Positions 20,554 to 63,228 of a stretch of 64,000 bases of DNA are shown in pieces (the stretch's first letter is position 1; every line of letters starts with the position of its first letter). A program made the position numbers and the translations under genes. The notes below the pieces were generated by a model. The model saw nothing but the letters and a program-made list of their open reading frames with translations, did no database searches and was not told where the DNA came from. Origin of the DNA: Candidatus Kuenenbacteria bacterium (GTDB lineage: Bacteria > Patescibacteriota > Patescibacteriia > UBA11705 > JABHMO01); assembly GCA_013202715.1 (NCBI GenBank), contig JABMRF010000007.1:72566-136565 (forward strand). The letters run 5' to 3'.

Positions 20554-20583
20554 CCCCGCGCACCGGGGTCCCGCCACGCGGGA
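20554..20583. repeat. GC-rich 30-nt tandem-hairpin mini-element (copy 1)
   Basis: ccccgcgcaccggggtcccgccacgcggga, 25/30 identical to the element at 55225-55254. Confidence 0.6.
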
Positions 20584-20713
20584 CGTTTTTCATTTTGCAT
20601 TTTCCCTTTGTGAATAAGTTGACATTCTCCCAAAAATATACTATGTTCTTAATATATAGAAATAAATAAATAAGATCAGGCCTTTTTGGCCTGACTTTAT
20701 ATTGAATCAAATT

Positions 20714-22526: not shown

Positions 22527-22534
22527 GAAAAACA

Positions 22535-22558
22535 ATCCCGCCAAGCGGGGTTTTTTCT
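22535..22558 (+). terminator. Rho-independent terminator
   Basis: cccgccaagcgggg + TTTTTT. Confidence 0.7.
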
Positions 22559-35482: not shown

Positions 35483-35489
35483 ACAAACG

Positions 35490-35523
35490 TATCGAGGCAA
35501 TCTTGTTGCCTCGATTTTTTATT
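35490..35523 (+). terminator. Rho-independent terminator
   Basis: atcgaggcaa tctt gttgcctcgat + TTTTTTAT. Confidence 0.75.
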
Positions 35524-36182
35524 TGCTTAATTTTCCACCCTCTTGAAATATTTTACGACACTTAACTTTTTGGAAATAAAAAAAAGAGAGTGGAGTAAAA
35601 AGTTAAGAAAAAGATAAAAAACACAAAAAAGGGGGGCAATAGAGAAGTTCAAAAAAATCTTTAAAAACCGTATATGGTTTTTAAATTTTAAATTTAAAAT
35701 TTTAAAAATTATTTTAAATATAAGAATGTAAATATATTTATTATAGATATAAATAGCCTGAGTCAATGATTGTCTAAAATTAGCACTAAATTGGTCATTA
35801 TAAAGGATCCAACAAAGCCCATATTACCCTATTTTGAAGGTTTGTTAAGGCTAATGTATTGCCTAAATTTAGCCAAAAAACAAGCCTCAAAACTGCGCTG
35901 TAAAGCGCCCAAATATCCTTTGAATACCATGGCACCTGTGAACTCTTGTTTTTTATCTAAATTTAGTACAAATTAACTCAATTTCCGCCATAGGCGGATC
36001 AGCCTTTGGCTGAAACTTAATCAACTGAGCCCTTACTTATCCACAGATGAATAGGTATAGTGCTTGGAGCTAGAATTCAACTGTATTACAATATAAATAG
36101 GTTAGCGTCTATAAATTAGTATTATGCGACACGGGCATACTTAATTTCTAATTAATCTAATTGCACTAATTTCTAATTTTCT

Positions 36183-37133
36183 ATGACTATCATAAAACTG
36201 ATCACCCACTTCCTCGATTATACTGACGTGGAAAAAGGATTGTCAAAAAAAACTCAGGAAAATTATGCCAGATGCCTGGAACGATTTAGGCGTTGGTTGG
36301 TTGACAGCAACATGCAAAATCTCCTCCCCCATGAGCTAACTAGCGAAATTGTTTGGCAATATAGACTTTTTTTGTCACGCAAAGCGATCTCAAAAAAAAC
36401 CAAAGCTGAACTGTCAAAAAAAACCCAAAATATGTATTTGATCGCACTCCGTGGGCTTCTCAGTTATTTCTCAGTGCGCGATATCCCTTCCCTCTCCCCT
36501 GACAAAATACGCCTTGCAAAACAAGAAAAAAATCATAGTGTACACTTTTTGTCTTTGGAAAAAGTCAAAAGATTACTTGATTCTCCGGCGGGAAATGATT
36601 TAACTTCAAAGAGAGATAAGGCAATTTTGGAATCATTGTTTTCTACAGGTTTTCGTGTTTCTGAATTAGTTCAATTGGATCGTGATCATATTAGTGTAAA
36701 AAATACAAATAAAGTGGTGGAGTATAGTGTCACGGGTAAAGGAAATAAAACTCGAACGGTCTATTTTTCTCTGAGAGCTCTCAGTGCAATACAGGCATAT
36801 CTTGGCGCACGCGAGGATATTGACCAGGCCATGTTCATAAATTATTCTCCAACTGCACCTGACGTTGGTTCTCGTCGGCTTACGGCCAGATCCATCGAAC
36901 GTATAGTAAAAAAGTATGTAAAATTAGCTGGTCTTCCCTTGAATACAACTCCTCATACTCTGCGTCATTCGTTTGCAACTGACCTACTAAATCAGGGCGT
37001 TGATATCCGTATGGTCCAGGAGTTCTTAGGTCACGAAGACATTTCAACCACTCAAATTTACACTCATGTTACCAACAAAAATCTTCGTGATATTTATACA
37101 AAATTTCACGGCGGGAAACGGTCTGAAAAGTAG
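36183..37133 (+). CDS. Tyrosine site-specific recombinase (XerC/XerD/phage-integrase family)
   Basis: C-terminal catalytic box HTLRHSFATDLLNQGVDIRMVQEFLGHEDISTTQIYTHV (R..HxxR..Y); N-terminal core-binding domain with K-rich insertions. Confidence 0.8.
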   Translation: MTIIKLITHFLDYTDVEKGLSKKTQENYARCLERFRRWLVDSNMQNLLPHELTSEIVWQYRLFLSRKAISKKTKAELSKKTQNMYLIALRGLLSYFSVRDIPSLSPDKIRLAKQEKNHSVHFLSLEKVKRLLDSPAGNDLTSKRDKAILESLFSTGFRVSELVQLDRDHISVKNTNKVVEYSVTGKGNKTRTVYFSLRALSAIQAYLGAREDIDQAMFINYSPTAPDVGSRRLTARSIERIVKKYVKLAGLPLNTTPHTLRHSFATDLLNQGVDIRMVQEFLGHEDISTTQIYTHVTNKNLRDIYTKFHGGKRSEK

Positions 37134-37669: not shown

Positions 37670-40600
37670 ATGAAAAAAATCGCAAAAAACAAAATCTTTA
37701 CAGGGTTCATTGCTATGACAACAATTGTCTGGGCAATGGGTTTGGCTGGAGTTCTTACTCCCCTACTTCCCGCTCAGGCAGCAGTTACGGTTGCAACGGA
37801 AAACAGAATCTATTCGTCCTGGGATATGAGTGGCGGAATGATGAGTGATGTTGCAGCTTTTAAAGTTACTGCTGATTCTGGAGAAACATTGAATTCTATC
37901 AATGTCCGATTTAACAGCACTTATGGTACTGCAACTCCAGCTGCAATGCTTTCGGCTTTTAATGTGGCTGGTCAAGAAGGAGCAACTGACGTCCAAGGAT
38001 TGTCTATTTACAAAGATTCTAATGCAAATGGCTGGTTTGATCCGGGCGGAGGTGATATCGTAGTACCTTGGGAAGTTCAACCAACTTGGACTGATAATGG
38101 AAACGGTACGTTTGATACCTCCCTGAATATTGTTGATGATACTTTACCTACAAGTTATGCCGGTGATTGGAACTATTTTTTACATATGCAAATGGCCGCG
38201 TCCCCTGATGCAGGCAAATCATTTAAGTTTCAATTTGGTGCTGGCGCTGGTGGAGCAATTGTAACTTCTGGAACATCACCAAGTATTACTGCATTTGAAA
38301 CAAATTCAATTAATAGTAGTGGTGGTGGTGGTGGTGATTATACAGTTTCTCCTCGAATTACTGATATATTTTTCAAGAGTCCCACTTCATTAGTCCTAGA
38401 TTTTGATATGGACATGGATACTACTTCAGTAAACTGTAATGAAGTCCTTATTCCGGGTAGTTGTTCCAGTAAATATACTTTGTTTACTAGAGATGGTGCT
38501 GATAATCAAACAATTATTACTGCTGTCCGTGGAGTTGTTGGGGACAATACTATGGTAACTTTGACAGCACACGCTAATGCCAGAATAGGTTTGTCATCAC
38601 AGGATTATTTAGTTGTTAGTACTGATCCAGCACAGGCACCTAGAGATGCAACGAATGGTATGAGTTATAATGAGGACGGAGTGATTAATTTCCATATAAA
38701 CAACGGAAGTGCTGTTATTTCAGAAATTAAAATTGGTGGATCCGCTACCACGGATGAATTTATCGAGTTATATATAACAGATTCCGGTGGATCGGTCGAT
38801 TTGGATGGGTATAAAGTAACAGCATTGGTTTCAAATGTATATGTTACATTGGCAACGTTAGGACCAACCTCTTTAGATACTGGTAAGCATTATTTATTGG
38901 CAAATAAGGCAAATGATTATAATATGGCAGTAGATGGAGTTGCTATGTTGGCCGATTTTAACTTTTCCGGCGTGGACTTAGCAGATAATGATACTATTAT
39001 TTTAGTTGACAACAACGGTGTTGTTATTGATTTGGTTGGCTTTGGTGCAGCTGCCACGATTTATCAGGGTTACTCTCCGGCAGATTCTCCGGCTCCGAAT
39101 GGTTCAATTGAAAGAAAGGCTGTATATTCCTCTACTGGTCAGTCTATGTCAGAAGCAGATGTAGACGGTGGAAATGGTTATAATAGTTTGGATAATGGGT
39201 ATGATTTTGTGAGTAGAAACGTACTTGACTCTGATCCACAACCATCAACAGCCACAGCAGAAAGTTCCGGTATGCTGGAAGATGATTATGTAAATAGCAC
39301 TCCAACAATAGAACATATGCCTATTGCTATGGCAATAGCCGGACAAAGTATAACAATAGATGCCTATATTTACGATGTAGAAAATTCTTTTAATGCATTA
39401 ATAACAAAGCAATTGTGTTACAAAGCTCCAAATGGATCTTGGCCAGGAACTTGTGTGACCGGTACAGACGAAGGACAAAATAGAGTAGAGTTTTATATCC
39501 CAGCTTCAGAAGTCACTATAAGTGGGCTTAATTACTATATTGAAGTTATTGATTCAGGGACTTTTGCGGCTTATGCCTCTTCTAATCCTACGTCCACAAC
39601 CGCTGTCATGGCAAAATTAAGTCCTTTTTTAATAAATATTTCCGCTATTGCTGGCTCCAGGATGATTAGTGGTACAGTTTATCAAAGCGATTGCATAACA
39701 CCAATTTATAATGCGAATGTTTATGTGAAAGGCACAGGACTCAGTTCTATTAGTTCCGCTTCCGGTGTTTTCACAATTACCGGAGTTTCGGACGGAACAT
39801 ACAATTTAGAAGCAACAGCAAGTGGATATCTTTCCAGTGAAATTTGGGGAGCGTCTGTAGGTGTTAATAATCCAAATTCATCGGGCTGGGTATTTTGTCT
39901 ATCGTCAGGAACAGCTGGGCAAGGTGGGGATTCTGAAGCACCGCAGGTGATTATGTCAATGCCAGGTGATGGAATGATGGGAGCTCCAATTGATATAGTT
40001 ATTGATCGCGCTCCGATGTTTTTTATGCTTGATAAGGAAATTGATATGACCACCGTAAGCTGTACAGACTGTGATGCCGCTACAGATAATATTAAGTTGA
40101 AAAAGGTCAGCGGAGGTTCTATTACTAACATTACAGATTACAATGTTAGTTTCGATACTGGTCTGGGTGCAGCCAGTAGAGGGCAAACAGTCCAATTCGG
40201 AGGTAGTACTTCTAATCCTGTAATTGTTATTGATAAAGTTGCACTTTTGGAAATAGGAACAGATTATATAATTGAAATTACACCAGGGGTGAAAGATATG
40301 GCTGGTAATCCTCTTGAGGGAAACCGACCTGGTGGCGGACATACCATATCGTTTACTACTCAATCAACCAGTAATAATTTTAGTGGTAGTTCTGGGTTTG
40401 ACTTTACTGAAGATGAAACTTTTTGGCAAACTGGTGATTTCTCCAGTATGACCGAGGACGCTGGATACGCTACAATGATGGGAAATTTTGATGCAGACAA
40501 GGGTATGTGGGCCGGAGGTGCATATAGCCCTCTGTATGTTTATGGCTCCCAACCATCTCCTGGTAGCTGGAATGTACCTACAAATTTAACAAAAATTGTT

Positions 40601-43600
40601 ATAGAGTTTAGCGAACCAATTGATACCAATAGTGTTAATAAAGGAGCTTTTAATTTGTACTCTGTCAGTGGCGGTGTTTATACAGATGTAACCAGTACTT
40701 CTATTGTGGATGCTATATTGAGTTCAAATAAGTTATATGTAATTATGGACATTAATGGTACTTTGCCTGTTGGTGAATATGAAATAAGAGTCAAGGGTGG
40801 AGTCAGATCAATGTCAGGCATTACACTCGGCGATCCAAATAATCCGGGAAATGATCATTACATGTCAAATTTTACTGTTACCAATACAACTGATGTAACT
40901 GCCCCTACAATGAATGGTAGTTGGCCTGAAAATAATGATATGTCAGTACCAATGGACTTTGGCTTTATTGATATAGGATTTGCTGAAGCATTGGATCCAA
41001 CTAATATTAACACTACAAATGTCACTTTGAAAACTGGAACATCAACTGTGCCGACCAATGTTGAATACGATGCGATGAGACAGTCAATCAAAATTATACC
41101 TACTACCGGTTTGACTCCAGGTGTAGCATATACTGCAACTATTAGTTTTGGCGCTTCTGCCATTCAAGATTTAGCAGGATTACCCATGGATCTATCTGGA
41201 CTTCTACTCACATTCAAAATGACTACAACGGCAGATAGTACTCAGCCTGTGCTTGAGTTTGCGAATTGTGATAGCTATAGTTGTGCAATCACTTTTAATA
41301 AAGGCATGAGCGCACTCAAGCAAAGTGAAGCTTCATCAAACGCTAACCTTTGGACTGGCAGTGTGAGAAATCCGGCCAACTATGCTTTGACTTTTGGTCC
41401 AGGTGGAACTGATACCGTAGAAAGTCTTACGGCCAGTGGTGTGTCCTTTAATTATGAATATGATACCAATACCGTATTGGTTGAAGGATTATCATTTACA
41501 GGCTTAAATGCAGATACAGATAAATTTGTTTTAACAGTAACCAATGTATTAGATCTTTCAAATAATCCAATCAACACTAGTGCCAATACAGCCGGTGGAT
41601 ATATTATGGATTCATCCAAGTCCGGCGGTATGATGGGACCTGGTGGTGGTGGATTTATGGGAGGTGGTATGATGGGTGGCGGAATAATGACCGGTGGCCC
41701 AAGCGGATTTGGTGGATTTGGTGCCAAAGAAGCTATGATGATGGGCGCAGGTGTGATGCCAATGAATATGACAGCCGGCGCAACTACTACATACTTTATT
41801 GACTTCCCTATGCCTCCATCAGGTGGAACTGCTAATAAACTTGATGATGGTTCATATTTTAAATTGACCTTTCCAAAGGGAACTACTTTGACTGGTGCAA
41901 TTCCAGATCCATACAATCCAAGTAAGACTGATCTTAATATGAATGGTGATGCAGTGGTTGTTCTGTCTGAATCTGGAATCGCTGCAGATTCAGTTGCTGC
42001 AACTCAGGCTGGTGCTATCAATGATGGAGTTACAGTTTCAGGTCAAACTATGACCTTGTGGTTAGATACAAATAGCGGAACAACTAGTGATCCAGATATG
42101 TTCCACTTTGAAGTCAAGGGCATTGTAAATCCAAAGGCTCAGGATTTTAATTCTTCAGGATATACAGTAGATATGAAAGCATATAATAGTGGCGGTACAT
42201 TGATAGAATCTATGACTTCTATGCCGTACTTTATAAATGCCGCGGGGTCAAATAATATTACGATTAATGTAACTGCTGAAGATGGTCTTGGTGATATGAC
42301 TTTGATGATGGGATCACCAATGTCCGGTCCAATGGACGCAGATGTATCTCTCATGGCTGGTGTGGGAACTCAAACTTGGTCAAATTTGAATGATGGTTGT
42401 TATCATATTTTTACTGAGCCAACAATTACTCTTGGTATATATAAATATTCAGGTCAGATGAATCCGGAACCGATTTGTTTGCCGGGTTCCGGCGCAAACT
42501 GGACTGAAGCTACGAGTACATTAACCAAAGCACTTACCTTTACAAAACGTAGCGCTGCTAATTCAGCTCAGCTAGCAGTATTAGTCAGTGGTACCTTTGC
42601 AGACGCCGGTGAAGACGTAGATATTTTTGCTTTTGGCCCAAATGGTGGAACCGTTGAAACTGTGACTTTTGGCGGTGAAGTTGTAAATAATTCCACTACC
42701 CTCTTTCTTCCATCCAATGGTGATTACAATATTGGTATCGGTCCGGCAATGCCAAAGGGTCCGATGGCCGGTCCCCCACCAATGCCTGATTGGATGCCAC
42801 CTATGACAACTGCGATCACTGTCAGTGGTGTCGGTGGAACTCCGGTAATTAAACGAAACGACACCAATGCTACTATTACTGAATTACCTATATCAATTAC
42901 CAGCGCTACAAAAGAAATTCGTGGACTGGTGGTCTCCAAGGGAACAACTATAGGTGCAAGTTATACTGCAGCTGCGACAAGTCTAACCTTAACCAGTGGA
43001 AGTGGCTTTGCGGAAAATGACTTTATTTATATATCTGATGGAACAAATACCGCTACTGATAAGATTCTGTCTATCAGTGGTACAACTGTGCAATTAACCA
43101 GTGGAATGGGTACATCCTTTGCTTCTGGTAGCGCAGTCTATAACATCATTCCTGACACTGAATTATGGGCTAATCAGCCAATGGGCTTTGGTGGTATGGG
43201 ATCTCACGCAACTTCACAAGCTGATGGTTCATTTGTGTTAAAAGTTGCTTCAAATGGTACTTATGATATTGGTGCTTGGAAGTCAGGAATTGGTGATGCT
43301 CCTTCTAGTTCGGCAACTGTCAAAGATAATAATGGTGGTACAGTAGATGGAAATAGTACAGCCGACGTTAAGGTTAATGGAGCTAACATTACTACTGTAA
43401 ACCCGTTCCTAATAAAAATAGGTAGACCAGATTATGTAATCTCTGGGCGAGCTATTGATTCCAGTAATAATCCAATGCAATATACTCATGTGATGGCAGA
43501 AGAAACTACAACTCGCCAAATGGCACATTCAAATACAGATTCAGATGGTGATTATATCCTCAATGTTAGTGCAGGTACCTGGAGTATTCAGGTAGATACA

Positions 43601-46312
43601 CCTCCTAGCTTTGATGGCTGTGGATCGACCTCTGCTACTGTTGTTGTTGCCGAAGCAACTGGAGATATGAATAATCAGACATTGCAACCAGCCACTACAA
43701 CTTGTTATACAATTTCAGGAAATGTGTCTGTAGGTGGAAATCTTCAGACTAATGTGCCTATTATGGTGGAAGCCTGGGACACAGATAATGACTGGCCATC
43801 CGGAGGTTATAATCGACATGAAATGACTGATACTGCTGGTAATTATGCCGTAAAAGCTGGAGCTGGAACATACCGAGTTTCTATGTGGTCACCTGATTAC
43901 GGTGAGGTTGGATCCAATGTAGTAATTACCAGTGCTAATGTAACTCAAAATATTAGTTATGATGCTTCTGAGTTGAAAACATTGACTATTGCCTTTACCG
44001 GTGGAACAGCAAGTCAGAGAGGTTTTGTAGAAGCAAAATCAACTACAGGGTCAGGTCGTCGTGGTATACCAGTCGCTGATTTAAGTAGTAGCACAACAAT
44101 GAGTTTACCCGTCGATACATATAAAGTAATGGTGTTTGTTGATGGCCTTGGTGATTACTCCCCTTCTTCAGAGGTTGATCTCACAACAACTGATCAAACT
44201 GTAACTATAAATCTTTCAACTGAAACTTCACATGCAGTAAGTGGAACAATTTTAGATAGTAGTGATAACCCGGTTTCTGGTGCAGCAGTACTTCTTGTAA
44301 ATGAAACTACCGGGCTAGCTAAACAAGCAACTACTGATGCTAATGGTGATTATTCCGCCACTGTAAAGGAAGGAACATTTACTATCAAGGCAGAGCACAA
44401 GGATTATGCTTCATTACCAAAAGCAACTCTAGCTGTAACTTCTGATATTAACTATGATTTTGATAGTGATTCAGAAAATGAAGATATTGCTGTAGATAAT
44501 GATTTAGTTGAAAAAACTGTAAGTATTAGTGGTACGATTTATAAATCTGATGGTACAACTGAAATGAATACCGGCGGATTTGTTTACGCAACAGATTCAG
44601 TGACTGGATCAAAGGCTAAGGCCAATATTCAGGACGATGGAACATATATTCTTCCAGTTACTGCTGGAAATTGGACAGTCATAGCTGATGGACCACTTCA
44701 CTCCGAGACAACTCTTAGTACTGCTGTGTCAGTGTCAAGTACAAATGTAGCAAGTGAAGATATTACATTGACTGAAGATGCGACAGATATTAAAAAGTCA
44801 GAATCATCAACCTTTACCCCATCCTCGGGTGTTAATGTAAATGATGAAAACAATACCGGTTTTGAAATTACGGCCAGTTCAGGTTCGCTTGGTCAAAACA
44901 GCACAGCTACTTCTGGAACAATTACCCTCGAAGAAGTTGATATGCCTGCTTCTGATAATTTGGTGCCTGTTGGAAACTTTGTAGATGTTTCAATGAGAAC
45001 TACCACTTCATCAGGTACTTCAGATATTAATCAGTTGACCGGTAATGGTGCTGAAATCGTGTTTCACTATACAGCTGCTGATATGACTGCTGCCGGAATA
45101 ACAGATGAATCAATGATATCCTTGGCCTATTATGATGATACTACTGAAACTCTTATGCCACTCGATAATCTCGCCCGTGATACAACTAATAATACAGTAA
45201 CTGGTACAATTACTCATTTGACAGAAGTTGGTTTGGTTGCTCCGCCGTTGGTGTCGTCTTCAGCTCCGCGTAGTGTTATGCCAAGCGCGGGATCGGCTGT
45301 AATTACCACTCCAGCCACAGATGAAGTTACAGACGTAGTTGAAGATGATACATCTGTAGTTACAGATACAGATATTGATACTGTTACCACTGTTGTTACA
45401 GATGTCAAAGAAGTAACAAAAACAGTTATCGCTGAAACAACCGCTGTCACAAGCTTTGTTCCTGAAAAACCGGCAGATCGATCACTTGCTAAAGAAAGTT
45501 TAGCAGTCGGCGATTACATCAAGTTAACCAGAACAGCACCAGATTCAGCTGAGGAGTGGAAAGTGATTGATTACATGGCCTACGGAACAACTGCCAAGGT
45601 TAAATCAATGACTAACGGAGAAAGATTTGGACTGCTCGAAGATTACAAGATCGTTTACAACCGATTGCCTGCAGCTGATACTGACTGGGAATCACTTGGC
45701 AAGATGGCGCAAGGAACTACTCCGGCCCGAATTATCGGCCGGGAAGCTGAAGCGTTGAAAGCATTTGTCAAAGTATTTGGCCGAGTTGTAGACTTTAGTA
45801 AGTCAGCTGAAGAAAAGTTCATTCACAGCGTTGCTTATTACTTGCGCCCTGCTGAGCGTGATATGGCAAAAGAACAAGCAGCTTTGGGAACATTTGCTGA
45901 TGCTTATAACAAGCTTCCAAACACAAGTTTCTTCTGGTCAGTACTTCGAGGTGTTGCTTATTCTGGTGTAGAAAAGAATGCACCAGTCCCTGTCCCTGAA
46001 ATACCGGCAGTTGAAGTTACGGCTCCTGCTCTAGACAATGCGTCTAATGTTGTTCCAGCTCATCCCGCAACTGCTGACAGAAACTTGAAAGCTGAAATTA
46101 CCGCAGTTAGTGATTATTCAGCCTTGATGGGCGGAACTCCGGATTCAGCTGGTTGGAGTACAATTTACTTTATCTCTTACGGAAGTACTGATGCCAGCAT
46201 GGCCATGACTTCAGCTGAGAGATTGGAGATTATCAAGACTTACAAGAGTCAGAACGACAAATTGCCAACAACCGATAGTGACTGGCAAGCTGTAGCAGAT
46301 TTAGTTCAATAG
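37670..46312 (+). CDS. Giant secreted surface protein (2880 aa): signal peptide, lamin-tail domain, Ig-like/CarbopepD_reg-like beta domains, a Gly/Met-rich low-complexity linker, a Pro-rich segment and a C-terminal triple ~60-aa repeat
   Basis: Signal peptide MKKIAKNKIFTGFIAMTTIVWAMGLAGVLTPLLPAQA. LTD-like block SAVISEIKIGGSATTDEFIELYITDSGGSVDLDGYKV...DNDTIILVDNNGVVIDLVGFG. GGMMGPGGGGFMGGGMMGGGIM linker and PPPMPDWMPPM segment. Three C-terminal repeats with (A/I)YG(T/S)T...ER..(L/I)..YK...(D/N)KLP..D(S/T)DW. Confidence 0.85.
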   Translation: MKKIAKNKIFTGFIAMTTIVWAMGLAGVLTPLLPAQAAVTVATENRIYSSWDMSGGMMSDVAAFKVTADSGETLNSINVRFNSTYGTATPAAMLSAFNVAGQEGATDVQGLSIYKDSNANGWFDPGGGDIVVPWEVQPTWTDNGNGTFDTSLNIVDDTLPTSYAGDWNYFLHMQMAASPDAGKSFKFQFGAGAGGAIVTSGTSPSITAFETNSINSSGGGGGDYTVSPRITDIFFKSPTSLVLDFDMDMDTTSVNCNEVLIPGSCSSKYTLFTRDGADNQTIITAVRGVVGDNTMVTLTAHANARIGLSSQDYLVVSTDPAQAPRDATNGMSYNEDGVINFHINNGSAVISEIKIGGSATTDEFIELYITDSGGSVDLDGYKVTALVSNVYVTLATLGPTSLDTGKHYLLANKANDYNMAVDGVAMLADFNFSGVDLADNDTIILVDNNGVVIDLVGFGAAATIYQGYSPADSPAPNGSIERKAVYSSTGQSMSEADVDGGNGYNSLDNGYDFVSRNVLDSDPQPSTATAESSGMLEDDYVNSTPTIEHMPIAMAIAGQSITIDAYIYDVENSFNALITKQLCYKAPNGSWPGTCVTGTDEGQNRVEFYIPASEVTISGLNYYIEVIDSGTFAAYASSNPTSTTAVMAKLSPFLINISAIAGSRMISGTVYQSDCITPIYNANVYVKGTGLSSISSASGVFTITGVSDGTYNLEATASGYLSSEIWGASVGVNNPNSSGWVFCLSSGTAGQGGDSEAPQVIMSMPGDGMMGAPIDIVIDRAPMFFMLDKEIDMTTVSCTDCDAATDNIKLKKVSGGSITNITDYNVSFDTGLGAASRGQTVQFGGSTSNPVIVIDKVALLEIGTDYIIEITPGVKDMAGNPLEGNRPGGGHTISFTTQSTSNNFSGSSGFDFTEDETFWQTGDFSSMTEDAGYATMMGNFDADKGMWAGGAYSPLYVYGSQPSPGSWNVPTNLTKIVIEFSEPIDTNSVNKGAFNLYSVSGGVYTDVTSTSIVDAILSSNKLYVIMDINGTLPVGEYEIRVKGGVRSMSGITLGDPNNPGNDHYMSNFTVTNTTDVTAPTMNGSWPENNDMSVPMDFGFIDIGFAEALDPTNINTTNVTLKTGTSTVPTNVEYDAMRQSIKIIPTTGLTPGVAYTATISFGASAIQDLAGLPMDLSGLLLTFKMTTTADSTQPVLEFANCDSYSCAITFNKGMSALKQSEASSNANLWTGSVRNPANYALTFGPGGTDTVESLTASGVSFNYEYDTNTVLVEGLSFTGLNADTDKFVLTVTNVLDLSNNPINTSANTAGGYIMDSSKSGGMMGPGGGGFMGGGMMGGGIMTGGPSGFGGFGAKEAMMMGAGVMPMNMTAGATTTYFIDFPMPPSGGTANKLDDGSYFKLTFPKGTTLTGAIPDPYNPSKTDLNMNGDAVVVLSESGIAADSVAATQAGAINDGVTVSGQTMTLWLDTNSGTTSDPDMFHFEVKGIVNPKAQDFNSSGYTVDMKAYNSGGTLIESMTSMPYFINAAGSNNITINVTAEDGLGDMTLMMGSPMSGPMDADVSLMAGVGTQTWSNLNDGCYHIFTEPTITLGIYKYSGQMNPEPICLPGSGANWTEATSTLTKALTFTKRSAANSAQLAVLVSGTFADAGEDVDIFAFGPNGGTVETVTFGGEVVNNSTTLFLPSNGDYNIGIGPAMPKGPMAGPPPMPDWMPPMTTAITVSGVGGTPVIKRNDTNATITELPISITSATKEIRGLVVSKGTTIGASYTAAATSLTLTSGSGFAENDFIYISDGTNTATDKILSISGTTVQLTSGMGTSFASGSAVYNIIPDTELWANQPMGFGGMGSHATSQADGSFVLKVASNGTYDIGAWKSGIGDAPSSSATVKDNNGGTVDGNSTADVKVNGANITTVNPFLIKIGRPDYVISGRAIDSSNNPMQYTHVMAEETTTRQMAHSNTDSDGDYILNVSAGTWSIQVDTPPSFDGCGSTSATVVVAEATGDMNNQTLQPATTTCYTISGNVSVGGNLQTNVPIMVEAWDTDNDWPSGGYNRHEMTDTAGNYAVKAGAGTYRVSMWSPDYGEVGSNVVITSANVTQNISYDASELKTLTIAFTGGTASQRGFVEAKSTTGSGRRGIPVADLSSSTTMSLPVDTYKVMVFVDGLGDYSPSSEVDLTTTDQTVTINLSTETSHAVSGTILDSSDNPVSGAAVLLVNETTGLAKQATTDANGDYSATVKEGTFTIKAEHKDYASLPKATLAVTSDINYDFDSDSENEDIAVDNDLVEKTVSISGTIYKSDGTTEMNTGGFVYATDSVTGSKAKANIQDDGTYILPVTAGNWTVIADGPLHSETTLSTAVSVSSTNVASEDITLTEDATDIKKSESSTFTPSSGVNVNDENNTGFEITASSGSLGQNSTATSGTITLEEVDMPASDNLVPVGNFVDVSMRTTTSSGTSDINQLTGNGAEIVFHYTAADMTAAGITDESMISLAYYDDTTETLMPLDNLARDTTNNTVTGTITHLTEVGLVAPPLVSSSAPRSVMPSAGSAVITTPATDEVTDVVEDDTSVVTDTDIDTVTTVVTDVKEVTKTVIAETTAVTSFVPEKPADRSLAKESLAVGDYIKLTRTAPDSAEEWKVIDYMAYGTTAKVKSMTNGERFGLLEDYKIVYNRLPAADTDWESLGKMAQGTTPARIIGREAEALKAFVKVFGRVVDFSKSAEEKFIHSVAYYLRPAERDMAKEQAALGTFADAYNKLPNTSFFWSVLRGVAYSGVEKNAPVPVPEIPAVEVTAPALDNASNVVPAHPATADRNLKAEITAVSDYSALMGGTPDSAGWSTIYFISYGSTDASMAMTSAERLEIIKTYKSQNDKLPTTDSDWQAVADLVQ

Positions 46313-48696: not shown

Positions 48697-50223
48697 TTAC
48701 ATCAATTTCGTTATCGCTAAATTAATCCGTTCGACCGTTTTTTCCTTGCCAAGAGCCTGTGCGATTTCAAACGGATCAGGAGAGTTGTCCCTCCCTGACA
48801 GAGCATAGCGCATTGGCCAGAGCATACTGCCGGTATCGATGTTATTTTCCTGAAGGAGGGCCGTAATAAGTTTTTTGAGATTTTCACTTGAAAAATCAGA
48901 TTCATTGATTTCATTCAGTAGCTTTTCAAGTAGTTTGAGGTTTTTAAGACTGTCAGTTTTATTTGATTTTTTCCAGACCAGTTTTTTTGGGTCATAATCA
49001 AGTTCTTTTTTGAAAAAGAATTCGAGAACTTCTCCCACTTCAGTAAATTTTTTTATTCTGGTTTGTTCCAGCGCCAGTATATTTTTTAAATAAGAAGATT
49101 TTATTTCTTCACCAGTATCTTTGATAACAAGTTTTTTGTTTTTTTCAATAATCAACTTTGCTTCAATTAAATATGGTAAACATTGTTCATAAAAATCATC
49201 AAGTGACAATTTTCTAATGTACATACCATTGATCCAGTCAAGTTTATCAACATCAAATACAGCACCAGATTTGTGGACATTATCGAGGCTAAACTGTTTT
49301 GTTAATTCATTCAAGGTATAAATTTCCTGTTCTGTCCCTGCGTTCCAACCGAGTAGAGCAATGAAATTAATAATCGCCTCTTTCAAATAACCTTTGTCAA
49401 TAAAGTCCTGAACTGAGACATCGCCGTCACGTTTACTCAGTTTTTTTCCATTTTTATTTAACAAAACCGGTAAATGAGCAAACACAGGCGCGTGCCAACC
49501 AAACGCTTCATAAAGTAGCGCATGTTTTGGCGTTGAGGCAATCCATTCATCACCGCGCAGGACGTGCGTGATTTTCATCAGATGATCATCTACGATGTTG
49601 GCAAAATGATATGTTGGAAAGCCGTCAGATTTTATGAGAACATAATCATCCATGTCTTTTGTTTTTACACTGATCTGGCCACGAATAAGATCCTCAAAAA
49701 TAACCTGTTTGTTTTCCGGCATCTTGAATCTGATCACGTGGGGTGTTCCGGAATTTAGTAGAGATTGAACTTCAGTTTTTGACAAGTTTCGGCAGAAGCC
49801 GTCATATTTTGGTGGCAGTTTTTGTTTGCGCTGTTCATCTCTCAGATCATCAATTCTTTGTTTTGTGCAAAAACAATAGTAGGCCTTATTTTTGTCCAAT
49901 AATGTTTTGATGTGTGTATTATAAATATCTAGACGCGCAGACTGAGTGTATGGTCCGAATTCTCCGCGTTCTTTTACTTTGTTGTCTTTTGTTAAATATG
50001 GGCCCTCCTCCCCTTCTATCCCCGCCCATTGTAGAGATTGAAGTAAATTTTCAATAGCTCCTGGCACAAGTCTTGACTGGTCTGTGTCTTCGATTCTAAT
50101 TATAAACTTGCCTTTTTCGTGGATTGCAAAGAGGTAATTATAGAGGATTGTGCGTAAATTGCCGACATGTACAAATCCGGTTGGACTTGGTGCAATTCGG
50201 ACGCGAATGATTGATGATTTCAT
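48697..50223 (-). CDS. gltX: Glutamyl-tRNA synthetase
   Basis: Class I core: RIAPSPTGFVHVGNLRT (HIGH-like) and KLSKRDG (KMSKS). Confidence 0.9.
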   Translation of the reverse strand: MKSSIIRVRIAPSPTGFVHVGNLRTILYNYLFAIHEKGKFIIRIEDTDQSRLVPGAIENLLQSLQWAGIEGEEGPYLTKDNKVKERGEFGPYTQSARLDIYNTHIKTLLDKNKAYYCFCTKQRIDDLRDEQRKQKLPPKYDGFCRNLSKTEVQSLLNSGTPHVIRFKMPENKQVIFEDLIRGQISVKTKDMDDYVLIKSDGFPTYHFANIVDDHLMKITHVLRGDEWIASTPKHALLYEAFGWHAPVFAHLPVLLNKNGKKLSKRDGDVSVQDFIDKGYLKEAIINFIALLGWNAGTEQEIYTLNELTKQFSLDNVHKSGAVFDVDKLDWINGMYIRKLSLDDFYEQCLPYLIEAKLIIEKNKKLVIKDTGEEIKSSYLKNILALEQTRIKKFTEVGEVLEFFFKKELDYDPKKLVWKKSNKTDSLKNLKLLEKLLNEINESDFSSENLKKLITALLQENNIDTGSMLWPMRYALSGRDNSPDPFEIAQALGKEKTVERINLAITKLM

Positions 50224-50227
50224 ATTG

Positions 50228-50302
50228 ATAGTCTAGAGTCTTGAGTCAATAGTCAAAAGTCGGAAATCTAACTCAGGACTTTTGACTCTAGACTTTTGAC
50301 TT
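50228..50302. repeat. Palindromic AGTC/GACT repeat cluster (copy 2)
   Basis: tagtctagagtcttgagtcaatagtcaaaagtc ... caggacttttgactctagacttttgac; same family as 13808-13884. Confidence 0.7.
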
Positions 50303-50408
50303 TATTATAGCGTAATTATATTTAATAGTAAATAGCCTTATGTTAGCTAAAACTAACGGGTTACCTAGTGTAAATTTAGATAATTTTATGAATATTAATT
50401 CATAGGTA

Positions 50409-50438
50409 TTGACAAATTTTTGAAACTATGCTATAATG
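50409..50438 (+). promoter_or_regulatory. Promoter TTGACA-18-TGcTATAAT driving the GC-rich gene
   Basis: AT-rich host-type promoter directly upstream of a 60% GC CDS. Confidence 0.55.
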
Positions 50439-50571
50439 CTGTATCAATTGGTTCTTTGAAAAATCGCTTGAGTACAACAGAAAGACCTTATTTACAATTA
50501 TCTATTGTATGTAGCGTCTTTTTGTTGTGTCGAGAGTCAACAATTTTTCAAAACCTTAATTGGAGGAAAGC

Positions 50572-52281
50572 ATGAAGAACGGAGAAAAGACGCTGAATGG
50601 AATCGTTGGTCTGTACAAGGAGTTTGGTCCCGACCTTCCGGTCGTGACCATCCAGGGAGTGCAGGTTGTCCGTCTGCCCAGCACCGTGACGGTGCTGGCG
50701 GACATGAAGGACGAGACGGTCCTCCAGCCCCTCAACCAGGCGAGGATTTTCCACGCCACTGACAGGCAGGGACAGTTTTTCCTGCTCCTCACCGAGGATG
50801 GCGCTGCCAAGATGGCATCGCTCATCGCAGAGGACCGGAACACCCGGGGTGAGGTTCTGACCGTGGCCGACGGCTACACCAAGTTCGTCACCTACACGGT
50901 GGCCATGGCAGCGGCAGCCGCCGCAGCCAAAGCCAAGAAGGCGGCAGCGGAAGCCAAGTCCCAGGCCAAGGCAGCAGCCACAGCCAAGCGGCTCGAGTCT
51001 TACAAGCTCATGGACCTGATCCGGTTCGGGCAGAGGGACTGCGTCCTCCTGCCCTCGGACGAGGTGGCGGAGATCCCGCTGCTAAAGGTCAAGCCCCTCC
51101 TGGGGACCATGGCTTCGTTCGTGAGGACCAAGCTGGAGGCAGTGGCCGAGCAGTACGAGGCCGACTACTCAACAGCTATCGCCGAGGCGCAGAAGGACAA
51201 GCCCTTCGCGCACGGCGGAGAGCTGGTCGACTGGGAGCGGGAGTTCCGTGCCCAGTGGGCTGACAAGAATGGCAAGTCCGCCCCGACGATGTGGGGTATG
51301 ACGGTTCTTCTCAGAAACTTCGACGATTACGGCGAGTTCGCCATGATCATCCGGTCGGATGACAAGGAGGCCATTCTGGGTCTCACCGGTTCGAGGTTGA
51401 TCTCTATGGGCGAGCCCATGCACTGGAGGCTCCGGAAGAAGTACTTCTTCGATCCGCGCGCAAAGGCGGCAGAAGAGGCGCGGAAGCTGGAGGCCAAGCT
51501 GGCTCGGGAAGCCAGGGCCAAGGAATCAGCGGAAAAGCTGCAGACCAAGGTCGAGGCCATGAAGGCCACCGGCAAGAACTTCCACACGTGTCAGGGCGAT
51601 ACCGTCTGGACACCTGTGGAATCCTTCGTGCGGATGTCCATGGACGATCTCGTCGTCTGCCCCGTCCTGGGGGAGATGAGCGAGGATGACGTCCTGGCCT
51701 GTATGGACGAGAAGTTCGTCGATGCGTACGAGTCCGCTCTGGACCAGGCGCAGAAGGCCGGCCCTCTCGGCGTGAAGGACTACTTCTCGTTCGAGGGGAA
51801 GTTCCGGAACGAGTATGCGAAGTCCAGCGGTGGTGCCACTCCCGGACTGGCGGACTTCGTCGTGGTGACGCGATACTTCCGTCGGGAAGGCGTGTGTTGC
51901 GCGGTCGTTCACAGGGACGATCTCGCGGCATTCAAGGCCATCGCGGGCAAGGGGACGAACCCCAACACCCGGGAGACCTACGAAGTTCCTCTTCGGGATC
52001 ACAGTGATCCCTTCTGGTGGATGCTCCGAAAGGAGCACTTCTTCGATCCCCTTTCCCAGCGAAAGGATCAGGAGAGGCAGGCAGAAGAAGAGGTCGTCGC
52101 GGTCCGGAAAGAACAGACGTTCGACCAGATGGGTGATCTCATCGGCGCTGAGCGACTGAAGGAGATGCGCGCATCGTTGGCTTCGGCCGACGAGGTCATC
52201 GATGATCACAAGTCTGCCGGCCGGCAGAAGTGGGACCGCCGGAAGAACGGTGGCGGCAAGAACCGCGGCAAGCGCGGCTAG
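50572..52281 (+). CDS. Hypothetical protein of foreign composition (~60% GC) with internal duplication, poly-Ala/Lys segments and a K/R/G-rich tail
   Basis: GGAGGA RBS; repeated P(M/F)xW(R/M)LRK(K/E)(Y/H)FFDP motif at two positions; AMAAAAAAAKAKKAAAEAK; C-terminal KWDRRKNGGGKNRGKRG. Confidence 0.6.
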   Translation: MKNGEKTLNGIVGLYKEFGPDLPVVTIQGVQVVRLPSTVTVLADMKDETVLQPLNQARIFHATDRQGQFFLLLTEDGAAKMASLIAEDRNTRGEVLTVADGYTKFVTYTVAMAAAAAAAKAKKAAAEAKSQAKAAATAKRLESYKLMDLIRFGQRDCVLLPSDEVAEIPLLKVKPLLGTMASFVRTKLEAVAEQYEADYSTAIAEAQKDKPFAHGGELVDWEREFRAQWADKNGKSAPTMWGMTVLLRNFDDYGEFAMIIRSDDKEAILGLTGSRLISMGEPMHWRLRKKYFFDPRAKAAEEARKLEAKLAREARAKESAEKLQTKVEAMKATGKNFHTCQGDTVWTPVESFVRMSMDDLVVCPVLGEMSEDDVLACMDEKFVDAYESALDQAQKAGPLGVKDYFSFEGKFRNEYAKSSGGATPGLADFVVVTRYFRREGVCCAVVHRDDLAAFKAIAGKGTNPNTRETYEVPLRDHSDPFWWMLRKEHFFDPLSQRKDQERQAEEEVVAVRKEQTFDQMGDLIGAERLKEMRASLASADEVIDDHKSAGRQKWDRRKNGGGKNRGKRG

Positions 52282-52325
52282 CTACCCAAACCTACCTAGG
52301 GACGTCCGTCCCAAAAGTCCCCCCC

Positions 52326-52360
52326 GCACTCGGGGGGGACATTTTTTTTGTCCGGATTTA
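52326..52360 (+). terminator. Rho-independent terminator (C7/G7 stem)
   Basis: gtccccccc gcactc gggggggac + TTTTTTTT. Confidence 0.85.
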
Positions 52361-52545: not shown

Positions 52546-52611
52546 ACTAAGAAAAAGGACATGTTCGTTAAATTTGAGCCCCATGTTGCTAATTTGACTA
52601 GAGGAGGCTTG

Positions 52612-53286
52612 ATGATAAGGGTAAGTAAATCAAACTTGGTTTCGCCAATAAGCGATGCGTTTTGGCCGGTGTTTTTCTCAAGTGAATTGATTGTTCGTTT
52701 CGTTGCTCAGGCAGTTTGTTTTGCCTTGTGCGATAAAAAGAAAAAACCACAATTGATTTTTGTTTATCCATATGAAGGGTCTTCGAGTCGACCGACCGCT
52801 GGTCAGCTTTTGCAAGTTTTTCAGAACTGCAAAGATCCTTGGCGAGAGTTTAGACCATTTGCTCTGCCGGTAAAAATGTCTGACCTTCTCGATCTGACCG
52901 GCGTGAATATTGAATGTGTCCAGGATGATTCGCGAGAAGTGGTTATTCTGTATGCGAACAAACAACCGAAGGATGAAATTGATTTCTCTGATTCGATGCT
53001 TGTTAGCGGGTATGCAAAGGCCGATCTTATTGATATGAGATCGTGGCCAGAAAACCCGGAAGAATATACGGTTCATTCTGCGGGATTTGAACCTGATGGA
53101 TGGAACTCTGAACATTACAGGCTTTTCGTAGAAAACTACGTTGTTCAAGGGGATCATATTTGCAGGATTCTCGCCTTAGCCAGAATTGGCTGTGAGGTTG
53201 AACTCTCCCCCACTGTGCGTATCAACGCCAGGTCCAAGATCATGATTAACCCTCCAATCAAAGACGAACATCGAATTGTTCACTAG
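52612..53286 (+). CDS. Hypothetical protein (~45% GC)
   Basis: GGAGG RBS 6 nt upstream of the ATG at 52612; 224 aa; no motif. Confidence 0.45.
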   Translation: MIRVSKSNLVSPISDAFWPVFFSSELIVRFVAQAVCFALCDKKKKPQLIFVYPYEGSSSRPTAGQLLQVFQNCKDPWREFRPFALPVKMSDLLDLTGVNIECVQDDSREVVILYANKQPKDEIDFSDSMLVSGYAKADLIDMRSWPENPEEYTVHSAGFEPDGWNSEHYRLFVENYVVQGDHICRILALARIGCEVELSPTVRINARSKIMINPPIKDEHRIVH

Positions 53287-54624: not shown

Positions 54625-55170
54625 CTAGAAGTCAGGCGGAAATTTTTTTAAAATTGAATAAATTGGGCCGGCTGGGGTAAGGTCGCTCTTTATAAGTTCA
54701 ATGGATTTCACCGTAAAGGAGAGTGCCTCAGTTTCCACTTGGTATCGAAGTTTGGCGCTGGCAGTTTTGATTCGTCCTAAAGTGATATGTGGCAAGAACG
54801 GACGATTGTCCACCTCAAGACCATTTTTTTGAAAAATATCTTTTACCGCTTCATGAATTTTTTTAAGTTTTTTTTCTGGGTCTAATATCTTAATTTTAAT
54901 TACCCGAGGTTTTTCTTTATTTGGGAATGATCCCGGCCTCTCAAGCGTCAAAATTAAATTCTCCGGAACACTAATGGATTCTAGATCTGTCTTTATCTTG
55001 TTTAGGGCTGCCTCTTTAATATTTTCAATAAAACCCAGAGTCAAGTGCAGATTCTCTGGCTCGACCCACTTGATGTTGACCCTCTGGTTTTCTTTGTCAA
55101 TTTTAAAAATAAGATCTTCGAGGTAATCCTGGACTTCTTTCGGTAAATTTATAGCTAGAAATGCTCGCAT
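54625..55170 (-). CDS. thpR: RNA 2',3'-cyclic phosphodiesterase (2H family, ThpR/LigT)
   Basis: Two H-x-T-x motifs (HLTLGFI; HITLGRI) at the correct spacing; 181 aa. Confidence 0.75.
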   Translation of the reverse strand: MRAFLAINLPKEVQDYLEDLIFKIDKENQRVNIKWVEPENLHLTLGFIENIKEAALNKIKTDLESISVPENLILTLERPGSFPNKEKPRVIKIKILDPEKKLKKIHEAVKDIFQKNGLEVDNRPFLPHITLGRIKTASAKLRYQVETEALSFTVKSIELIKSDLTPAGPIYSILKKFPPDF

Positions 55171-55215
55171 AATGTGATTGAATAATAGCATATTATCTGG
55201 TAAAATGGAAGTGAA

Positions 55216-55262
55216 GATAAGTTGTCCCGCGCGGCGGGATCCCGCTACGCGGGATAAGTTGT
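55216..55262. repeat. GC-rich 30-nt tandem-hairpin mini-element (copy 2) flanked by the 10-bp direct repeat GATAAGTTGT
   Basis: gataagttgt-cccgcgcggcgggatcccgctacgcgg-gataagttgt. Confidence 0.65.
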
Positions 55263-55293
55263 AGAGTTGTAAATAGCAATTTGGAAATAAAAT

Positions 55294-56172
55294 ATGAAAG
55301 AAGCACTACTTTATACAAAGGAATCAAATAGGATCGTTCACTGCCTTTGCTGTGAGCATCATTGTGTTATTCGGAATGGTGCCGTGGGTGTTTGTAATGT
55401 TCGGAAAAATGAGGATGGTAAACTGTACAGTTTAGTTTACGGAAAAATAATTGCTCAGCATGTGGATCCGATTGAAAAAAAGCCACTCTATCATTTTCTA
55501 AAAGGTTCACTCACCTATTCGATCGCCACAGTTGGTTGTAATTTCAAATGTAAGCATTGTCAAAATGCGGACATTGCGCAGTTCAGGGAGCACGTTGGTG
55601 AGGAGGACTGGATTCCCGGCGCTCTATTAAAGCCTGTTGATATTGTCCGATTTGCCGGGGAAAATAACTGCGAGAGCATTGCCTATACTTATACAGAGCC
55701 AACGATATTTGTCCAGTTTGCGCTCGAAACAATGAAGCTGGCGCGCCAAGCTGGATTGAAAAATGTTTGGGTGTCAAACGGATACTTTTCAAATGATACT
55801 TTTGAATTGATAAAATATTATTTGGATGCGATTAATATTGATCTTAAGTTTTTCAATGACCTGACTTACAAACAGATTTGCGGGGCGAAGTTGGAGCCGG
55901 TTTTGCGAAGCATCCGCTCGTGTGTTGCAAATAATATTCACACTGAAGTTACAACTCTTGTGATTCCTGGGATGAACGACAGCAATACTGAGCTTCATCG
56001 GATTGCAGATTTTCTGTACAATGTTGACCCGGAAATTGTTTGGCATTTGTCCGCATTTTACCCTGCGAGTGAAATGAAGGATGTTTCCCCTACTTCGATC
56101 GGAACTCTGAACCGAGCCTTGAAAATTGGCTTAGCCGCAGGCCTGAAAAACGTGTATTTAGGGAATGTTTAG
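55294..56172 (+). CDS. Radical SAM enzyme of the AmmeMemoRadiSam / PflA-like activase type
   Basis: CNFKCKHCQN (CxxxCxxC); upstream DPIEKKPLYHF and an N-terminal Cys-rich segment (HCLCCEHHCVIRNGAVGVC), characteristic of the AmmeMemoRadiSam-system radical SAM family. Confidence 0.65.
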   Translation: MKEALLYTKESNRIVHCLCCEHHCVIRNGAVGVCNVRKNEDGKLYSLVYGKIIAQHVDPIEKKPLYHFLKGSLTYSIATVGCNFKCKHCQNADIAQFREHVGEEDWIPGALLKPVDIVRFAGENNCESIAYTYTEPTIFVQFALETMKLARQAGLKNVWVSNGYFSNDTFELIKYYLDAINIDLKFFNDLTYKQICGAKLEPVLRSIRSCVANNIHTEVTTLVIPGMNDSNTELHRIADFLYNVDPEIVWHLSAFYPASEMKDVSPTSIGTLNRALKIGLAAGLKNVYLGNV

Positions 56173-63194: not shown

Positions 63195-63228
63195 GAGCCC
63201 CCCCGCATCGCGGGGGGGCCTTTTTCTT
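63195..63228 (+). terminator. Rho-independent terminator (C7/G7 stem)
   Basis: gcccccccgcatcgcgggggggc + TTTTT; same style as 52326-52360. Confidence 0.85.

Follow-up and report, generated by a model that had tools for sequence, protein, structure and literature searches.

A 30-bp nested palindrome in a Kuenenbacteria genome belongs to a widespread family of probably mobile, REP-dimer-like mini-elements

We propose that the 30-bp palindrome at positions 55225-55254 of the stretch analysed here represents a mobile mini-element of non-autonomous type, akin to REP dimers and REPINs, which inserts without a target-site duplication (TSD) and whose movement would be of the HUH type; we give this reading a probability of roughly 0.6. 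The stretch (the window, 64,000 nucleotides) comes from a 203.8-kb contig of a Candidatus Kuenenbacteria MAG (CPR/Patescibacteria, ~39% GC). The palindrome belongs to a family whose members differ between close relatives by exactly 30 bp, leave no duplication at the two loci where empty alleles are found, lie beside a biased flanking motif and are tolerated in frame within genes.

The palindrome and its setting in the window

The element and its surroundings comprise the following features:

54625-55170, minus strand: ligT/thpR-type 2',5' RNA ligase family gene, the divergent neighbour of the element
55178-55206, plus strand: promoter-like site TTGAAT-N17-TAAAAT, TG-extended, conserved in relatives
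55213-55293, plus strand: putative ~80-nt 5' leader of the radical SAM mRNA, absent from relatives, with the element near its 5' end
55218-55224, no strand assigned: left flanking heptamer TAAGTTG, which on the minus strand reads CAACTTA and fits the family flank consensus CAAnTTn
55225-55254, no strand assigned: 30-bp nested palindrome, the element core, T-CCCGC-GCG-GCGGG-A / T-CCCGC-TAC-GCGGG-A
55255-55261, no strand assigned: right flanking heptamer TAAGTTG, followed by the related TAGAGTTG and TAAATAG in a short tandem array
55294-56172, plus strand: AmmeMemoRadiSam-system radical SAM gene, the downstream neighbour of the element

The element is TCCCGCGCGGCGGGA followed directly by TCCCGCTACGCGGGA, two 6-bp stems each with a 3-nt loop. 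It is the same in three independent assemblies, and the same-strain contigs L001-L003 carry the window sequence. The preliminary description had reported two tandem hairpins at 55226-55252. The sequence is as claimed, with its full extent at 55225-55254, but the units are inverted rather than tandem, and the predicted minimum-energy fold of this copy is one long hairpin in which the outer arms are paired, with a 1x1 mismatch and a GAUC loop. The two other copies in the window, at 20554 and 35984, are each predicted to fold as two hairpins. A flanking 10-bp direct repeat had been reported as well. The string GATAAGTTGT is indeed found exactly twice in the window (55216-55225 and 55253-55262), but three of its nucleotides, the last T of one copy and the first GA of the other, are the element's own terminal bases, so that the true flanking repeat is 7 nt long, TAAGTTG.

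The element starts 18 nt downstream of the promoter-like site, which is kept in five relatives (66-74% protein identity), all of them without the element. The ATG of three of these relatives (L005, L006 and L007) lies 6 nt past the -10 hexamer TAAAAT, a leaderless arrangement. When aligned with the relatives, the window shows ~80 extra nucleotides at the start of the radical SAM gene, and the element is contained in them. The leader RNA is predicted to fold with -34.6 kcal/mol (z = -6.5); if the conserved promoter is used, as we infer, the mRNA would open with a very stable hairpin, the effect of which could be stabilising or neutral. This copy stands between divergent genes with a tail, TAAGTTGT, that has no T-run, and it was not called by a terminator scan; it thus falls outside the definition of an intrinsic terminator.

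Since the closest relatives at this locus are just 74% identical, insertion here is deduced from their comparison together with the behaviour of the family. An empty junction without a TSD would read ...GATAAGTTG/TAAGTTGTAG... (the slash marking the junction), and its TSD version ...GATAAGTTG/TAGAG...; searches of JGI metagenomes for the empty allele gave 0 matches under the single-heptamer and the two-heptamer models alike. The suggestion that the element is inserted and non-native agrees both with the relatives, which keep the promoter without it, and with the presence and absence of the 30-mer between close relatives in uvrB and gltX, described below.

The same locus shows other features in the relatives. 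Relative L009 (2800-2960) carries an unrelated ~150-nt insert, with inverted repeats of its own, at the same point as the window's leader. Single GC-rich hairpins are present in the same-locus spacers of L004 and L007, at positions other than that of the window element (L004:2945-2959, L004:2207-2221 and L007:141-166; TCCGCCTATGGCGGA, TCCGCCAAAGGCGGA and GCCAGAGGACGcatcCGTCCTTTGGC). Directly 3' of the radical SAM gene of L007, a 67%-identical relative, lie IS630-like HTH_33 and DDE_3 ORFs (L007:1267-2287).

A scan of the window for adjoining 15-nt GC-rich hairpins recovered three 15+15-nt elements, all extragenic, compared with 0 in 50 block shuffles; the string CCCGCNNNGCGGG, with up to 1 mismatch, has 6 matches in the window against 0.31 expected. 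Besides the 55225 copy, these elements are:

20554-20583, plus strand: degenerate family member CCCCG-CGCAC-CGGGG / TCCCGC-CAC-GCGGGA, the second hairpin followed by a T-run, terminator-like, after the PBP2 gene
35984-36013, no strand assigned: third family member, TCCGCC-ATA-GGCGGA / TCAGCC-TTT-GGCTGA, with variant stems and the flanks AACTCAATT / AACTTAATC

The 20554 copy (CCCCGCGCACCGGGG + TCCCGCCACGCGGGA; flanks GGTTTTA / CGTTTTT) is identical to the 55225 copy at 25 of 30 positions and lies 83 nt past the PBP2 stop codon and 36 nt ahead of the greA -35 hexamer, which bears out the earlier report of a second copy upstream of the greA promoter. The accompanying claim that both copies occupy promoter regions has to be given up: a divergent promoter region surrounds the 55225 copy alone, and the 20554 copy is terminator-like. 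Its hairpin GTCCCGCCACGCGGGAC is followed by GTTTTTCATT, the terminator scan calls it and it fits the definition of an intrinsic terminator; it plausibly terminates the PBP2 transcript, and it may have been co-opted, or may persist, in that role. The 35984 copy (TCCGCCATAGGCGGA + TCAGCCTTTGGCTGA), which had not been noted before, includes in its stems a compensated C-G to A-T pair. It is situated in a 700-nt AT-rich gene-free spacer (35483-36182), 170 nt upstream of a Xer-like tyrosine recombinase gene at 36183-37133. A link to Xer was rejected as coincidence, no Xer homologue being found near any other copy.

Intrinsic terminators of the window at 22534-22552, 63197-63219, 52317-52340 and 20568-20584 are single CCCGC..GCGGG hairpins followed by T-runs, and the window's terminator hairpins often have extended C/G runs. 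The mobile hairpins and these terminators may have a common origin. No Rfam family reaches its gathering score anywhere in the window; around the 55225 element there is a sub-threshold match to SscA, with E = 0.58 and 18.6 bits where the gathering score is 60 bits. No tRNA genes were found in the window. Positions 50000-52300 form an island of 54% GC in this 39% GC genome, the ORFs at 50560-52281 (573 aa) and, next to it, at 52561-53286 have no Pfam match, and 37670-46312 is a single ORF of 2880 aa.

A palindromic family in distant phyla

A scan of one genome per bacterial and archaeal species with the query CCCGCNNNGCGGGATCCCGCNNNGCGGG found the core T-CCCGC-N3-GCGGG-AT-CCCGC-N3-GCGGG-A in at least 119 stretches of species-representative genomes, a sample in which the exact-match search favours intact stems. 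Among the matches listed are ~40 Patescibacteria loci from many candidate phyla, and some Lentisphaerota, Kiritimatiellae (GH20) and Dehalococcoidia MAGs with many copies each; the isolate Aquincola tertiaricarbonis has many copies as well. The copies among the matches listed come from many phyla; they occupy spacers between convergent, tandem and divergent genes as well as the interior of ORFs. Variant stems with the same architecture also occur, TCCGCC..GGCGGA and TCCGGC..GCCGGA. The core pattern has 0 matches in viral contigs, where one permuted-stem pattern had 2 matches (a TCCGCC-type variant that keeps the architecture) and another had 0, too few to control for specificity.

The conserved sequence extends beyond what the query specified. 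In 59 of 63 non-redundant copies the pattern is preceded by T, and in 59 of the 63 it is followed by A; the query specified neither base. The loops are polar, with a 5' loop RRA (mostly GAA, AAA, GGA or AGA) and a 3' loop TYY that is its complement; the two loops are exactly complementary in 13 of the 63 copies and differ from this by one mismatch in 16. Because of this complementarity the consensus is a perfect 30-bp palindrome, TCCCGCGAAGCGGGA + TCCCGCTTCGCGGGA. It reads TCCCGC-GAA-GCGGGA / TCCCGC-TTC-GCGGGA, which is two inverted units and not a tandem pair.

Some lineages embed the 30-mer in longer repeats. It is the centre of a lineage-specific repeat with the arms GGATATTGGATATT on both sides in Lentisphaeria (L021, L074, L033 and others), where the repeat units sometimes form ~80-bp tandem arrays. 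Kiritimatiellae GH20 loci (L014, L016 and others) also have a longer repeat around the 30-mer, with the arms ..cctttagcccgcgg / ataacttgcagtg...

The core string was found in the literature only as BamHI primers, and our literature search found no paper on such elements in CPR/Patescibacteria. This 30-base family of palindromic mini-insertions is widespread and apparently undescribed.

Copies inside genes, empty alleles and flanks

Approximately 24 of the roughly 120 listed copies fall in long ORFs. Eighteen of these 24 are in phase 0 and read S-R-x-A-G-S-R-x-A-G (p = 3.6e-5 against one third). The host ORFs include UvrB, LeuRS, PolX, RlmN and a YvcK-like protein; the copy in GluRS is in phase 2. 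Comparison with PDB homologues gives a clean 10-residue gap for UvrB and gaps of ~9-10 residues for RlmN and GluRS.

Two of these genes provide occupied and empty alleles. The UvrB of L095 carries the insert, and 13 relatives at 87-90% identity are without it. The occupied uvrB allele reads AGCCAG-(30-mer)-CAAGTGG, and the empty alleles read AGCCAA/CAAGTTG and AGCCAA/GCGGTAG. A 78%-identical UvrB has a variant element, with TCCGGC stems, at the same nucleotide position as the L095 insert; this position has either been hit twice or is a hot spot. The GluRS of L118 has 10 extra residues, an exact insert that the nine other homologues in the alignment (identity 74-86%) lack; one of these, P0248, has an insert of 12 unrelated residues in the same loop. 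Here the occupied gltX allele is ...TCAAAACT-(30-mer)-CAAAATTC... and the empty allele is ...CTCAAAACT/CAAAATTG..., in which the similar heptamers CAAAACT/CAAAATT are already adjacent. Taken together, the uvrB and gltX allele pairs indicate that the element comes and goes as exactly 30 bp.

Other hairpin sequences are found in GluRS genes. The gltX of a Gottesmanbacteria member (L136:720-800 and 1320-1400) contains a different hairpin element of ~36 nt, GCCTGCCCGCAATGCTACGCAAAGCGTTGCAGGCGGG, translated SPARNATQSVAGG, twice in frame; each copy is located between the tandem heptamers GAAAGTC / AAAAGTC, and one of them is in the loop that holds the 30-mer in L118. The GluRS relatives P0247 and P0249 have inserts or tails with ..DSRLRGND..., which resemble a translated hairpin repeat of the TCCCGC..GCGGGAATGAC type. 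Judged from this resemblance, they would represent a further type of in-frame hairpin element in CPR proteins.

The flanking repeat at 55225 had been taken for a TSD. At uvrB and gltX, the two loci with empty alleles, the occupied allele is longer by exactly 30 bp and nothing is duplicated, and the gltX empty allele has the two similar heptamers side by side without the element, which is the observation that the preliminary description had named as speaking against a TSD. The TSD is thereby refuted at the level of the family, though not at the window locus itself. The likeness of the flanks is nonetheless a general property of the copies: across the 63, the left and right 7-nt flanks have an identity of 0.435, where permuted pairs give 0.309 +/- 0.022 (z = 5.8), and 9 copies match at 6/7 or better against 0.8 expected, the 55225 copy being the sole perfect 7/7 match. 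The flanks are also self-similar at period 7 (0.359 vs 0.276). At gltX this 7-nt similarity arises because the tandem heptamers pre-exist. Heptamer arrays at the same GluRS loop differ by lineage with their length unchanged, and they accompany the different 36-nt hairpin element as well as the 30-mer.

The bases that adjoin the core are biased too. CA (or CAA) abuts it on at least one side in 33 of the 63 copies, against a background of 5%, and the outward flank consensus is C-A-A-w-T-T. The insertions in uvrB and gltX are both immediately 5' of CAA.

Movement, alternatives and known systems

We propose that the element is a 30-bp nested palindrome in which a pair of 15-nt hairpin units abut directly in inverted orientation. 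At the two loci with empty alleles insertion is precise and free of a TSD; copies often lie beside (A)ANTTG / CAANTT(n) and often between short tandem heptamers, and the element is tolerated in spacers and in frame within genes, where its SRxAGSRxAG reading would fall in the surface loops of essential proteins. Movement may proceed through a single-stranded hairpin intermediate, with a trans-acting HUH enzyme of the IS200/IS605 or RAYT type. IS200/IS605 transposases and RAYTs recognise hairpins and insert beside a short motif with no duplication (PMC6006769; PMC3116915), and the insertions described here likewise lack a TSD and adjoin a short target-like motif. The ~55 ORFs of the window, scanned against Pfam, include no HUH, RAYT, DDE or other transposase, and the one recombinase among them is the Xer-like enzyme of 36183-37133. 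When 1266 ORFs of the 119 listed loci were clustered all against all, no gene family was seen to recur next to copies and only housekeeping synteny (trmD, ruvA and similar) emerged. These results count against our proposal, as do the lack of GTAG and CGTC tags and of an empty 55225 allele in the metagenomes searched. REP/REPIN families, moreover, do not usually have one identical core in distant phyla, and the 7-nt flank similarity and period-7 flanks are not predicted by a simple HUH model.

It is also possible that the element spreads without an enzyme of its own, through ectopic gene conversion guided by short homology, through template switching or through the annealing of single-stranded DNA that the cell has taken up, the repeated AT-rich flanks acting as homology arms that are converted along with the core. 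This is the main mechanistic rival, and we consider it unlikely but deserving of weight. It accommodates the lack of both a TSD and an identified enzyme, the flanks common to unrelated loci (the right flanks of the 55225 copy and of L064 are 11/14 identical, and those of the Kiritimatiellae family 10/14), the ~35 nt of arms shared by L012 and L035, and the GluRS-loop heptamer arrays that vary by lineage without a change in length; co-conversion has been proposed for yeast mitochondrial GC clusters (PMC4478555). Weighing against it, the occupied and empty uvrB alleles differ by the 30-mer only, with no donor-like arms, homology of at most 7 nt is very short for recombination, and a polar, sequence-specific core kept across phyla suggests recognition by a protein. 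The flank similarity, the 7/7 match of the 55225 copy and the period-7 flank repeats could alternatively point to a cut-and-paste MITE with abutted terminal inverted repeats, a DDE transposase and a 7-bp TSD (TAAGTTG twice). This we regard as improbable, since the gain is exactly 30 bp where empty alleles exist, so that uvrB and gltX show no TSD of fixed length, the GluRS heptamers pre-exist, and in-frame copies in ORFs are incompatible with an insertion of +37 bp. No DDE transposase is present in the window, and no parent IS or other longer element with the same terminal inverted repeats was seen in the loci examined.

Two further explanations do without mobility. The preliminary description had considered operator sites, and selection by the host for an operator of a palindrome-binding regulator, or for an RNA element that evolved on the spot as a terminator, attenuator or stabiliser, would account for the perfect dyad symmetry of the core, centred on GGATCC, for the promoter or leader position of the 55225 copy, for the T-run with which the 20554 copy follows a gene and for the single CCCGC..GCGGG hairpins that are the usual terminators of this genome. 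The dyad symmetry is real, but it is not confined to the promoters of a regulon: copies are present in all spacer types and in ORFs of unrelated genes in many phyla, the outward flanks are CAA-rich and not T-runs, the 55225 copy stands between divergent genes and has no T-run, and the element is missing from the orthologous promoter of relatives. Host selection is therefore quite improbable, and operator function finds no support. Chance, or a terminator hairpin that was duplicated in tandem on the spot, without significance beyond this locus, could be invoked because the stems are the genome's common terminator stem and the two units are adjacent; it is very improbable given the three double hairpins observed against 0 in shuffles, the inverted architecture and the at least 119 loci with the core, and it is contradicted by the uvrB occupied and empty alleles. 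A bulge-helix-bulge intron, an RNase III site, a CRISPR repeat, attC and a telomere-resolution site were set aside as well, since their anatomy or context is a poor match.

If the HUH-type mini-element that we favour is the correct reading, CPR genomes, in which mobile DNA is usually thought to be scarce, harbour a selfish element of very small size that remodels promoters, leaders and terminators and has left a fixed decapeptide in UvrB, GluRS, LeuRS and RlmN. It would also offer clean pairs of occupied and empty alleles for the study of TSD-free insertion. The SRxAGSRxAG decapeptide would also be a recognisable marker for annotation and alignment artefacts in metagenome proteins. More tentatively, we can imagine a pan-phylum 'nano-transposon', a complete 30-bp unit that inserts precisely near AANTTG-like sites, is harmless when translated (SRxAGSRxAG on either strand), owes its movement either to an HUH-type enzyme that has escaped recognition or to a host function that is nearly universal, and supplies CPR terminators and leader hairpins. 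Such a unit would be among the smallest mobile units, and the heptamer arrays would be its landing pads or the traces of its activity.

Among described elements, the closest in kind are REP dimers and REPINs (PMC3733652, PMC3116915, PMC3337134). REPs are GC-rich palindromes of 20-40 bp, often found as inverted pairs with spacers down to 1-2 bp, and uvrA, uvrB, ligase and tRNA-synthetase genes stand out among those with published intragenic in-frame copies (PMC3733652). The 30-mer likewise consists of short GC-rich units in inverted pairs that can fold separately or as one hairpin, is dispersed in spacers and has copies in frame within uvrB and tRNA-synthetase genes; with its paired inverted units and its precise presence and absence in uvrB and gltX, the earlier designation as a REP-like palindromic mini-element stands in kind. 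Unlike those of REPs, its GC-rich palindromic units are just 15 nt long, below the usual range, with zero spacer, and they lack the GTAG/CGTC tag that defines a REP (of 244 flanks, taken as the 14 nt next to the core, 3 contain GTAG and 0 contain CGTC, with no enrichment). Also unlike REPs, the core is common to very distant phyla and has a large intragenic fraction with a strong phase-0 bias.

Elements of the IS200/IS605 'peel and paste' type and their hairpin derivatives (PMC6006769) share with the 30-mer the hairpins, a short target motif, the absence of a TSD and precise presence or absence. They differ in that the hairpins of the 30-mer are the whole element, symmetric and with no subterminal guide or linker sequences, that its target motif TTG^ / ^CAA is a statistical bias only, and that no TnpA is encoded among the ~55 ORFs of the window. 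Rickettsia palindromic elements (RPEs) and Coxiella MITEs (PMC1779305, PMC5896051, PMC10969869) are comparable as selfish palindromes that occur in frame in small AT-rich genomes. These are ~100-150 bp or longer and genus-specific, whereas the 30-bp core spans phyla.

The double-hairpin elements (DHEs) of Allomyces, reportedly described by Paquin et al. in 2000, resemble the 30-mer in their double-hairpin fold. Mitochondrial GC clusters (yeast GC42, PMC4478555) are, like it, GC-rich palindromes of 30-50 nt in AT-rich genomes with sporadic presence and absence. GC clusters and DHEs also have in common with the 30-mer that substitutions are constrained by structure. Unlike the 30-mer, both are organellar, have 2-3-nt flanking direct repeats (AG/ACT) and bear no sequence relationship to it, so that the comparison is one of analogy only. 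If our proposal is right, mitochondrial GC clusters, long without an explanation, would have a counterpart among bacteria in the family described here.
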